Made by a program: the position numbers and the translations under genes | The notes under the pieces: generated by a model | The model's database searches: none | What the model saw: the letters and a program-made list of their open reading frames with translations, nothing else | Told to the model about the DNA's origin: nothing | Source of the DNA: Escherichia coli | GTDB lineage: Bacteria; Pseudomonadota; Gammaproteobacteria; Enterobacterales; Enterobacteriaceae | NCBI RefSeq assembly: GCF_003334305.1 | Contig: NZ_QOWS01000006.1 | Reading direction: 5' to 3' (one strand) | Length of the DNA stretch: 64,000 nucleotides | Shown here: one piece after another, positions 3,709 to 53,053 of the stretch | Numbering within the stretch: the first letter of the stretch is position 1 | Layout: the number at the start of each line of letters is the position of its first letter

Positions 3709-4851
3709 TTAGCGGTATTGCTTCAGCACCGCGCGACCCAGCGTCAGGATCTGCATTTCGTCAGATCCCCCGGAGACGCGGTCTACACGCAGATCACGCC
3801 AGAAGCGGCTGATGCGGTGGTTGCCCGCAATCCCGACACCGCCCAGCACCTGCATTGCGCTATCCACCACTTCAAATGCCGCATTGGCGCAGAAGTATTT
3901 GCACATCGCTGCATCGCCAGAGGTGATGGTGCCGTTGTCTGCTTTCCACGCTGCTTCATACAGCATGTTTTTCATGGAGTTTAATTTGATCGCCATGTGG
4001 GCGAATTTTTCCTGAATCAACTGGAAACGACCAATAGCCTCGCCAAACTGCACGCGCTGGTTGGCGTAGCGCGCCGCATCTTCAAAGGCGCACATCGCCG
4101 TACCGTAGTTGGTGAGGGCTACCAGGAAACGTTCATGATCGAACTCTTCTTTGACGCGGTTAAAGCCGTTACCTTCCCGACCGAACATGTCTTTCTCGTC
4201 CAGTTCCACGTCGTCAAAGGTGATTTCACAGCAGCTATCCATACGCAGACCGAGCTTTTCAAGTTTGGTCACTTTGATGCCCGGTTTGCTCATATCAACA
4301 AACCATTCGGTGTAGACAGGTTTGTCCGGAGAAGCCCCGTCGCGCGCCATCACCACGATGTACGGGGTGTAGGCGCTGCTGGTAATAAAACACTTACTAC
4401 CATTAAGATAAATCTTACCATTTCTACGGGTATAAGTCGTTTTCAGGCTACCCACGTCGGAGCCCGCGCCCGGTTCGGTAATCGCTGAGTTCCACATCTG
4501 CTTACCGGTGCCGCGGAAAGCCATAATCTTGTCGATCTGCTCTTGTGTGCCTTCGCGCAGGAAGGTGTTGAACCCGCCCGGCAACTGGTACAGCACATAG
4601 GTTGGTGCCCCCAGACGTCCCAGCTCCATCCACACGGCGGCGAGAGTAACAAACCCCGCGTCCAGACCACCGTGCTCTTCAGGGATCAGCAGACTGTCGA
4701 TACCCATATCCGCCAGTGCTTTGACAAAACGTTCCGGGTAGACGCTGTCACGGTCGCACTCGGCAAAATAGGCCTCCCAGTTTTCGCTGGCCATCAGTTC
4801 GCGGATACCGGCGACAAACAGTTCCTGCTCATCATTTAAATTAAAATCCAT
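3709..4851 (-). CDS. caiA: crotonobetainyl-CoA dehydrogenase/reductase (acyl-CoA dehydrogenase family)
   Basis: 380-aa [22 protein letters not shown]...; acyl-CoA dehydrogenase-like. Confidence 0.95.
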
Positions 4852-46582: not shown

Positions 46583-46669
46583 TTAATGCTGGATGCCGCT
46601 CACTCGTCTACCGCGCAAAGAAGATGCGTTTAGTAGTAGTAGACCGATAAAGCGAACGATGTGAGTCAT
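46583..46669 (-). CDS. leuL: leu operon leader peptide (28 aa, four tandem Leu codons)
   Basis: Hand translation of the complement of 46583-46669 gives [28 protein letters not shown]; the four Leu are all CUA; followed by the attenuator hairpin; it is the 3' part of track ORF 46583-46774. Confidence 0.85.
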
Positions 46670-46899
46670 TAAATCAGCTCCAGATGAATGCGATATGCTT
46701 TTAGAGTTACTGGATACAAAAACGGATGTCAACCCTGACGCAATAAAAACGTCCCGCCAGCGTGAGTTCTGCATCCGTAAAATTAGCTAATTGTGCTGCG
46801 GTGGTTAAAGTAAGCGATATTAATTTCTGCTTAACTACCGACGCTTTTCATCGGTTGACATATTTCAGCATAAATTTTTGCATCTAATCAACGAGGAAA

Positions 46900-47150
46900 A
46901 AGGGGACAAAATGCACGCGTTGCAAAACCTATCCTGATGATTTGTATTGAATTATATGTTTTGCGATTTTTTTTGATATTGATTTGGTGAATATTATTGA
47001 TCAATTAATGTTAAGAATTAATGCATTAAATATATAAATTAATTATTAAATAAGCACATTTAATCCATTTTGTAGATGATTGAGTATTCGCGGTAGTTAT
47101 GATTAGATTGTTTTCGCAACAAAAACATTATGGATTATTATGCTGTGGTA
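46900..47150. promoter_or_regulatory. strongly AT-rich leuO upstream region (candidate H-NS nucleation / LeuO autoregulation zone)
   Basis: Runs such as TTGATCAATTAATGTTAAGAATTAATGCATTAAATATATAAATTAATTATTAAATAAG; no coding capacity. Confidence 0.5.
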
Positions 47151-47328
47151 AATGACTCATTCCACGGCAATGGATTCTGTTTTTATCAGAACCCGTATCT
47201 TTATGTTTTCCGAATTTTACTCATTTTGCTTTTTCTTATTTTATATGCATGATAAATCATATTCTTCAGGATTATTTCTCTGCATTCCAATAAGGGAAAG
47301 GGAGTTAAGTGTGACAGTGGAGTTAAGT

Positions 47329-50988: not shown

Positions 50989-51993
50989 GTGAAACTGGAT
51001 GAAATCGCTCGGCTGGCGGGAGTGTCGCGGACCACTGCAAGCTATGTTATTAACGGCAAAGCGAAGCAATACCGTGTGAGCGACAAAACCGTTGAAAAAG
51101 TCATGGCTGTGGTGCGTGAGCACAATTACCACCCGAACGCCGTGGCAGCTGGGCTTCGTGCTGGACGCACACGTTCTATTGGTCTTGTGATCCCCGATCT
51201 GGAGAACACCAGCTATACCCGCATCGCTAACTATCTTGAACGCCAGGCGCGGCAACGGGGTTATCAACTGCTAATTGCCTGCTCAGAAGATCAGCCAGAC
51301 AACGAAATGCGCTGTATTGAGCACCTTTTACAGCGTCAGGTCGATGCCATTATTGTTTCGACGTCGTTGCCTCCTGAGCATCCTTTTTATCAACGCTGGG
51401 CTAACGACCCGTTCCCGATTGTCGCGCTGGACCGCGCCCTCGATCGTGAACACTTCACCAGCGTGGTTGGTGCCGATCAGGATGATGCCGAAATGCTGGC
51501 GGAAGAGTTACGTAAGTTTCCCGCCGAGACGGTGCTTTATCTTGGCGCGCTGCCGGAGCTTTCTGTCAGCTTCCTGCGTGAACAAGGTTTCCGTACTGCC
51601 TGGAAAGATGATCCGCGCGAAGTGCATTTCCTGTATGCCAACAGCTATGAGCGGGAGGCGGCTGCCCAGTTATTCGAAAAATGGCTGGAAACGCATCCGA
51701 TGCCGCAGGCGCTGTTCACAACGTCGTTTGCGTTGTTGCAAGGGGTGATGGATGTAACGCTACGTCGCGATGGTAAACTGCCTTCTGACCTGGCAATTGC
51801 CACCTTTGGCGATAACGAACTGCTCGACTTCTTACAGTGCCCGGTGCTGGCAGTGGCTCAACGTCACCGCGATGTCGCAGAGCGTGTGCTGGAGATTGTC
51901 CTGGCAAGCCTGGACGAACCGCGTAAGCCAAAACCTGGTTTAACGCGCATTAAACGTAATCTCTATCGTCGCGGTGTGCTCAGCCGTAGCTAA
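50989..51993 (+). CDS. cra: catabolite repressor/activator (LacI family; FruR)
   Basis: 334-aa ORF with GTG start: [25 protein letters not shown]... HTH followed by a periplasmic-binding-protein-like domain. Confidence 0.95.
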
Positions 51994-52509
51994 GCCGCGA
52001 ACAAAAATACGCGCCAGGTGAATTTCCCTCTGGCGCGTAGAGTACGGGAATGGACATCAATATCCTTAAAGTAAATAAGACTATTCCTGACTATTATTGA
52101 TAAGTTCTTTTAAACCCGCCCGTTAATTAACTCACCAGCTGAAATTCACAATAATTAAGTGATATCGACAGCGCGTTTTTGCATTATTTTGTTACATGCA
52201 GAGATGAATTGCCGATTTAACAAGCACTTTTCTTTGCTTTTGCGCAAACCCGCTGGCATCAAGCGCCACACAGACGCAACAGGGACTGTTAACCGGGGAA
52301 GATATGTCCTAAAATGCCGCTCGCGTCGCAAACTGACACTTTATATTTGCTGTGGAAAATAGTGAGTCATTTTAAAACGGTGATGACGATGAGGGATTTT
52401 TTCTTACAGCTATTCATAACGTTAATTTGCTGCGCACGTTGGACGTAAAATAAACAACGCTGATATTAGCCGTAAACATCGGGTTTTTTACCTCGGTATG
52501 CCTTGTGAC

Positions 52510-52594
52510 TGGCTTGACAAGCTTTTCCTCCGCTCCGTAAACTCCTTTCAGTGGGAAATTGTGGGGCAAAGTGGGAATAAGGGGTGAGGCTGGC
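52510..52594 (+). promoter_or_regulatory. mraZ promoter region with three GTGGG(A/G) direct repeats at 10-bp spacing (MraZ autoregulatory sites)
   Basis: TTGACA at 52514-52519; GTGGGAAATT, GTGGGGCAAA and GTGGGAATAA at 52551-52580, immediately upstream of the mraZ ATG. Confidence 0.7.
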
Positions 52595-53053
52595 ATGTTC
52601 CGGGGAGCAACGTTAGTCAATCTCGACAGCAAAGGGCGCTTATCAGTGCCTACCCGTTACCGGGAACAGCTGCTTGAGAACGCTGCCGGTCAAATGGTTT
52701 GCACCATTGACATTCATCACCCGTGCCTGCTGCTTTACCCCCTGCCTGAATGGGAAATTATCGAGCAAAAATTATCGCGTCTGTCGAGCATGAACCCGGT
52801 TGAGCGCCGTGTGCAGCGCCTACTGTTAGGTCATGCCAGCGAATGTCAGATGGATGGCGCAGGTCGATTGTTAATCGCGCCAGTACTGCGGCAACATGCC
52901 GGGCTGACAAAAGAAGTGATGCTGGTTGGACAGTTCAACAAGTTTGAGCTGTGGGATGAAACAACCTGGCATCAACAGGTCAAGGAAGATATCGACGCAG
53001 AGCAGTTGGCTACCGGAGACTTATCGGAGCGACTGCAGGACTTGTCTCTATAA
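52595..53053 (+). CDS. mraZ: transcriptional regulator MraZ
   Basis: Track ORF 52559-53053 is 5'-extended; the ATG at 52595 ([26 protein letters not shown]) gives 152 aa. Confidence 0.92.

Follow-up and report, generated by a model that had tools for sequence, protein, structure and literature searches.

A candidate secondary promoter and rigidly spaced conserved blocks in the cra-mraZ intergenic region of Escherichia coli and other Enterobacteriaceae

The intergenic region between cra and mraZ in Escherichia coli contains, in addition to the known mraZ promoter (Pmra) at its 3' end, a series of short sequence blocks that are strongly conserved across the Enterobacteriaceae and that, in the case of islands B and C, lie at near-constant distances from one another and from Pmra. 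Island B has the layout of a promoter directed towards mraZ and contains a published transcription start. On balance it is probable that this block is a conserved secondary promoter of the dcw cluster, and that the gap as a whole serves the mraZ-to-lpxC operon as a long cis-regulatory region made up of several parts.

The region was analysed within a 64,000-nucleotide stretch of E. coli DNA (contig NZ_QOWS01000006.1 of assembly GCF_003334305.1), referred to throughout as the window. The genes cra (50989-51993) and mraZ (from 52595) are separated by 601 bp (51994-52594), equivalent to 89033-89633 in K-12; window coordinates correspond to K-12 coordinates minus 37039, a conversion that was checked base by base. 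The 601-bp sequence is present in 5,424 of 5,426 complete E. coli genomes, with a contiguous copy missing in about 1-3 of the 5,426, and shows 100% identity to that of B-lineage strains. An initial annotation of the window had described a gap of about 600 bp with no assigned feature other than the mraZ promoter, and indeed no RefSeq feature was found within it in the K-12 record or in 20 E. coli genomes sampled across the identity range. The interior of the gap is moderately AT-rich, as had also been described, with 52038-52513 having a G+C content of 40% versus 53% over the whole window. The initial annotation was mistaken in considering this to be the largest gap in the window, since the unannotated interval between leuL (46583-46669) and leuO (from 47329) is larger at 659 bp (46670-47328). 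GATC sites are absent from 51980-52700 (720 bp), where approximately three would be expected by chance, an absence that is not significant when taken alone.

The extent of sequence constraint was examined in 80 loci from across the Enterobacteriaceae, ranging from Escherichia to Buttiauxella, Cedecea, Siccibacter and Franconibacter, which were retrieved by an MraZ scan of a genome collection. The best 120 MraZ matches were all at least 85% identical, with the Yersiniaceae and Erwiniaceae lying outside this sample. At every locus with sufficient flanking sequence cra is located directly upstream of mraZ, the gap between them measuring 553-733 bp in the 78 species in which it could be measured. 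Third codon positions of cra, employed as a neutral yardstick, average 52% identity to E. coli, and 7% of them reach a conservation of at least 0.9; the corresponding value for positions in the gap is 26%, and these are clustered in runs of 17-44 nt. The principal conserved segments, with mean conservation, are as follows.

52180-52196: island A, 17 nt, 0.91
52286-52293: CTGTTAAC, 0.91
52305-52348: island B, 44 nt, 0.93
52399-52407 and 52411-52434: island C, 9 and 24 nt, 0.95 and 0.89
52509-52547: Pmra core, 39 nt, 0.97
52551-52574: MraZ repeats, 24 nt, 0.89

The constraint on island B is thus nearly equal to that on the known promoter Pmra. The same pattern is evident within E. coli, where eight diverse sequences contain 3 variable sites in 191 bp of island sequence versus 30 in the remaining 410 bp (Fisher p = 0.003).

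The following elements are located towards the 3' end of the gap.

52504-52519: CRP-like site TGTGACTGGCTTGACA, centred at approximately -40.5 and in overlap with the -35 of Pmra
52514-52551, plus strand: Pmra, comprising a TTGACA -35, an 18-nt spacer, a TAAACT -10 ending at 52543, and starts at 52550/52551
52552-52576, plus strand: MraZ operator repeats, TGGGA at 52552, TGGGG at 52562 and TGGGA at 52572, conserved and with 10-bp spacing

The Pmra -35 is therefore located at 52514, exactly where the initial annotation had placed it, with the spacer and -10 hexamer completing the promoter. The three direct TGGGN repeats constitute the MraZ operator, to which MraZ is reported to bind (Eraso et al. 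2014). The CRP-like site was the sole match returned by motif scans and has one mismatch to TGTGA-N6-TCACA; its left (TGTGA) half is poorly conserved beyond the Escherichia/Citrobacter group, hence any CRP input may be lineage-specific. Published starts for Pmra at K-12 89589/89590 correspond to window 52550/52551 (PMC4782308, PMC3415461). Genomic SELEX places mraZ among the targets of CRP (PMC3105977), while the PdhR probe of Goehler et al. (PMC3265435), to which binding was weak, spans 52493-52536.

Evidence for transcription from further upstream is provided by the Cappable-seq GTF of PMC4782308, which contains four plus-strand starts within the gap. These are listed with their scores, together with the elements that surround the third of them.

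52104 (K-12 89143), plus strand: start, score 6.2
52198 (K-12 89237), plus strand: start, score 2.1
52286-52293, plus strand: candidate weak -35 element CTGTTAAC, at -35 to -28 relative to start 52321
52303-52348, plus strand: island B, the core of the candidate upstream promoter, comprising a -10, discriminator, published start and initial transcribed region
52321 (K-12 89360), plus strand: start, score 9.4
52551 (K-12 89590), plus strand: Pmra start, score 27.2

The start at 52321 is positioned 6 nt 3' of the hexamer TAAAAT and is directed towards mraZ, its signal in this single dataset being about one third of that of Pmra; the mapped start base, a T, is an unusual one. A shallower dataset for E. 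coli and Klebsiella (PMC3415461) contains Pmra alone, with a 45-nt UTR in both species. The initial annotation had suggested that the gap might house further sites for control of the dcw cluster or a small RNA that had escaped annotation, and had proposed conservation and transcription as checks. Since constraint is not uniformly low, being concentrated instead in sharp islands across the Enterobacteriaceae, and since three published plus-strand starts exist besides that of Pmra, the first of these suggestions gains support.

Several features of island B are those of a sigma-70 promoter, and the block is interpreted as such. The TAAAAT hexamer (52310-52315) matches TATAAT at five of six positions and is invariant in 80 sequences. 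It is followed by a GC-rich discriminator, GCCGCTCGCG, with GCCGC(T/C)CGCG between the -10 and the start being invariant, as is the GTCGCAA of island B, and the initial transcribed region, GTCGCAAACTGACACTTTATATTT, is near-invariant over the first 28 transcribed nucleotides. Upstream of these, CTGTTA (at -35 to -30, within CTGTTAAC) matches TTGACA at three of six positions with an 18-bp spacer and went unscored by the consensus promoter scan; nevertheless, CTGTTAAC is fixed at 24 nt before TAAAAT in 70 of the 80 sequences, despite variation in the sequence of the intervening spacer. The 28 invariant transcribed bases exceed the needs of a plain promoter, which indicates that something else constrains island B. 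Neither the terminator scan nor per-species folds revealed a terminator between island B and mraZ, and transcripts initiated at island B would thus be expected to read through Pmra and into mraZ with a 274-nt leader.

Base composition around island B is also distinctive. The segment immediately 5' of its -35 (52230-52285) has a G+C content of 54-65% across all species with no conservation of sequence, and the stretch 3' of the island (52330-52420) is AT-rich, at 22-39% G+C across all species. Composition rather than sequence appears to be maintained here.

A natural disruption of the element is found in E. coli strain 4/4, in which a full IS5 (retrieved segment 3818-5017) is inserted at CTAA 52309-52312 inside TCCTAAAAT, with duplication of the CTAA target, such that CTGTTAAC is parted from TAAAAT by 1.2 kb. 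The element at island B is therefore dispensable for viability. A metagenome scan for TAAAATGC-N7-GTCGCAA returned about 100 chance matches; those with similar flanks were all located upstream of mraZ, indicating that the island B core is not a dispersed motif. In one unrelated contig, Ga0137394_10027148, 24 nt identical to the core of island B (CCTAAAATGCCGACCGCGTCGCAA) occur at 4449-4475, directly before a gyrB-like start codon; this is probably a chance occurrence, although the match exceeds the length that the search pattern demanded.

The remaining features of the gap lie on either side of island B.

52009-52037: GC-rich hairpin immediately 3' of the cra stop codon, with folding energies of -22.9 (plus strand) and -23.3 (minus strand) kcal/mol
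52075-52088: moderately conserved block TAAGACTATTCCTG, family consensus TTCAGATAATTCCTTA
52092-52104, plus strand: weak promoter, not conserved, with a TATTAT -10 at 52092-52097 and start 52104
52176-52198, plus strand: island A, TTTTTGCATTATTTTGTTACATG, with the weak published start 52198 inside it
52207-52228: island A2, AATTGCCGATTTAACAAGCACT, defined by the conservation profile and alignment, family consensus AATTGCnGAATTAACAnnCA
52397-52434: island C, TTTTTTCTTACAGCTATTCATAACGTTAATTTGCTGCG, defined by conservation and spacing

Motif scans of the islands for LexA, DnaA, IHF, PdhR, Cra, PurR, sigma-54 and sigma-28 yielded nothing conserved. The islands bear a weak likeness to LacI-family operators (with a CG core), and island C a weak likeness to an H-NS nucleation motif. 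The sequence of island A2 in E. coli deviates from the family consensus. In island C, no promoter-like pair of hexamers was found on either strand, whether by scanning or by reading of the sequence. Islands A, A2 and C are presumably recognition sequences with selected distances to both promoters; together with the invariant 28 nt at the beginning of the transcript from island B they would either bind proteins on the DNA or act within the leader RNA.

Nearer to cra, start 52104 has a good -10 (TATTAT), around which conservation is low. The block at 52075-52088 is likened here to the RcsAB box TaAGaatatTCctA, a weak resemblance that serves as a lead only. Compared with that consensus, the block matches at 10-12 of 14 positions in 38 of 79 species, a level attained by about 3% of shuffled sequences, and its location, flanked by the -35 and the -10 that belong to the weak start 52104, would be atypical for such a site. 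Strain 24AR0357 carries, at TTAA 52123-52126 in an unconserved part of the gap, an inserted miniature element of 109 bp (retrieved segment 734-842), the ends of which are the terminal inverted repeats of IS5 (GGAAGGTGCGAATAAG...CTTATTCGCACCTTCC).

Distances between the blocks were measured from invariant words in the 79 loci that carry both anchors. The interval from TAAAAT in island B to TATTCA in island C is 99-102 bp, and that from TATTCA to the Pmra -35 is 101-104 bp, in all 79 loci; the sequences of both spacers are only about 50% conserved despite their constant lengths. The distance from island A to island B is looser, at 123-137 bp, and the cra-proximal segment is full of indels. Distant relatives, namely a metagenomic genome with MraZ and Cra proteins 84% and 88% identical, respectively, and two others, keep the 100-bp and 102-bp intervals. 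Decay of the islands is seen in a bee-associated lineage, where 211 bp separate B from Pmra. Such rigidity is unusual for regions composed of a promoter and cis-acting sites. Intervals of approximately 100 and 102 bp, or roughly 19 helical turns together, suggest a phase-dependent nucleoprotein arrangement that joins the upstream promoter to Pmra. Since the spacing is fixed and no covariation at the RNA level was detected, a phase-dependent protein complex at the level of the DNA is the favoured explanation for it; an element in the leader that is unstructured and bound by an sRNA or a protein is a less likely alternative.

The same observations could be taken further, by supposing that the blocks function purely at the DNA level as sites for transcription factors or nucleoid proteins that control Pmra remotely, via looping or wrapping, with the start at 52321 being incidental and TAAAAT forming part of a binding site. 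The rigid spacing, maintained though the spacer sequence varies, is compatible with this proposal, as are the lack of promoter features in islands A and C, the AT-richness of 52330-52420 in every species, and the reports of CRP and PdhR on the mraZ promoter region (PMC3105977, PMC3265435). However, start 52321 lies at the exact distance expected from a -10 hexamer with five of six consensus bases, the fixed element at the -35 position and the conserved discriminator complete the layout of a promoter, and the start yields a Cappable-seq signal about a third as strong as that of Pmra. A purely DNA-level role is accordingly regarded as unlikely, albeit with a weight that should not be neglected.

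The main rival to a secondary promoter serving mraZ is that island B drives an independent non-coding RNA, on either strand, with the conserved blocks representing recognition sequences in the RNA, such as seeds or protein sites. Two forms can be envisaged: a plus-strand RNA that begins at 52321 and ends by Rho-dependent termination or processing near island C, or an RNA of about 300 nt that runs leftward and has its end at the 52037-52009 hairpin. The near-invariance of the 28 leading transcribed nucleotides would suit an RNA of this type, and there is a precedent in UpsM, an sRNA within the long mraZ leader of R. sphaeroides (PMC5089854).

The hairpin is of relevance to the leftward form. 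The initial annotation had noted it, and it does fold, at about -23 kcal/mol; the accompanying statement that it has no T-tract holds for the plus strand only. On that strand, which is also that of cra, GTAGAGTACGGG comes after the stem, and the sequence does not qualify as a Rho-independent terminator, whereas on the minus strand the stem leads into the U-tract TATTTTTGTT (52008-51999), which is the canonical shape of an intrinsic terminator for leftward transcripts. The terminator scan missed the hairpin because its loop is longer than 8 nt. Both E. coli and E. albertii have the minus-strand U-run. In other genera this place is occupied by unrelated hairpins, whose T-run is mostly on the plus strand, the orientation expected of a terminator for cra. 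With the U-run confined to the minus strand, it may be that cra ends by another route in E. coli and E. albertii, or that leftward transcripts need to be stopped. This minus-strand orientation keeps the idea of a non-coding RNA alive, even though the U-tract is not conserved outside Escherichia. Candidate minus-strand promoters in island B (TTGCGA/GACATT and ATGACT/TATAAA) were rejected as conserved promoters, since key bases of their -10 elements are missing in most genera, and the promoter scan gave no site on the minus strand.

For the remainder, the search for an RNA gene in the gap gave negative results. An Rfam scan at E <= 10 returned only two matches, to families other than UpsM, both at chance level and both overlapping the cra hairpin, with best scores of 18 bits against a gathering threshold of 95 and 15 against a threshold of 70. 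RNAalifold, applied to 56 leaders extending from 52321 to the mraZ ATG, revealed no structure and no compensatory change upstream of Pmra. In per-species folds there was no consistent hairpin ahead of the conserved T-run at 52397-52405, nor in the GC-rich segment that precedes island B and CTGTTAAC, and fold z-scores were approximately -0.1 to -1. Published Term-seq tables (PMC7815308) contain no 3' ends between K-12 83641 and 89783. The small RNA that had been suggested for the gap is thus without positive support, and the absence of structure, terminator and 3' ends renders an independent RNA from island B rather improbable.

The presence of a small protein gene, either in the frame of island C (hydrophobic in E. 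coli, MTMRDFFLQLFITLICCARWT) or in the ORFs at 52159-52362 (plus strand) and 52414-52632 (minus strand), is very improbable, and as a conserved gene it is already refuted: although the variable island C positions 52406, 52409 and 52418 are third codon positions, the frame has no conserved start codon, many species and genera having no ATG, GTG or TTG in the interval that separates the upstream in-frame stop from the island C motif, island B has 1-nt indels in several genera, the small ORFs, which the initial annotation had rightly found unconvincing, are open in 9-27 of 78 species (17 and 24, respectively, for the two named), ORFs in the gap have no family match in NCBIfam, and none of the genomes retrieved has a gene call in the gap.

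With island B interpreted as a secondary promoter, the region can be compared with other systems. The multi-promoter regions by which E. coli controls its dcw cluster (Pmra/mraZ1p, and the ftsQ, ftsA and ftsZ promoters) likewise have tandem plus-strand starts that feed one long operon. The known part of the present region comprises Pmra and the MraZ operator at the 3' end of the gap, with start 52321 and islands A to C being unannotated in RefSeq. The searchable full-text literature contained no description of the element at start 52321, of islands A to C, or of their fixed spacing. An older review, as cited in PMC3265435, refers to five starts at the dcw cluster's 5' end, so the upstream starts may have been seen before. 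The candidate upstream promoter and islands A to C constitute a real and strongly constrained section of the control region of the dcw cluster, hitherto uncharacterised and composed of elements of a known kind.

GC-rich discriminators of the layout found in rrn-type promoters are associated with initiation that is sensitive to ppGpp and DksA. Promoters of the stringently controlled rrnB P1 type, as commonly described, combine a near-consensus -10 and a GC-rich discriminator with a non-optimal -35 and spacer, and the arrangement at island B (TAAAAT followed by GCCGCTCGCG) is similar. The discriminator suggests that the upstream promoter may be sensitive to growth rate or to ppGpp/DksA, in the manner of stable RNA promoters. 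The likeness to rrnB P1 has its limits, in that an UP element and Fis sites were not identified here, and the product would be an mRNA leader as opposed to a stable RNA.

A second parallel is with UpsM of Rhodobacter sphaeroides (PMC5089854), where a far-upstream promoter gives rise to a leader of 268 nt, compared with a predicted 274 nt here. UpsM is an abundant sRNA bound by Hfq, and it ends in a terminator of the Rho-independent type, whereas no terminator, conserved structure or detected 3' end is associated with the E. coli region, which unlike the UpsM system also keeps a strong proximal promoter. It is conceivable, though doubtful, that the Enterobacteriaceae possess a conserved long-leader layer of control, in which the island B leader (274 nt) or a separate RNA from one of the strands would use its invariant 5' end and island C to dock some sRNA or RNA-binding protein that sets the level of transcription into mraZ-ftsZ. 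If true, this layer would be the equivalent, in functional terms, that enterobacteria have of the UpsM/StsR system of alpha-proteobacteria.

How much of the cell-wall and division machinery is supplied depends on the dcw operon. A probable second promoter, deeply conserved and with a stringent-type discriminator, two or three unassigned near-invariant blocks, their rigid spacing of approximately 100 bp and the published capped 5' end at that promoter together provide defined targets for mutation, which could link growth rate or stress to the expression of division genes. More broadly, elements that are as constrained as a known promoter can reside in a gap left without annotation in the bacterium that has been studied best.
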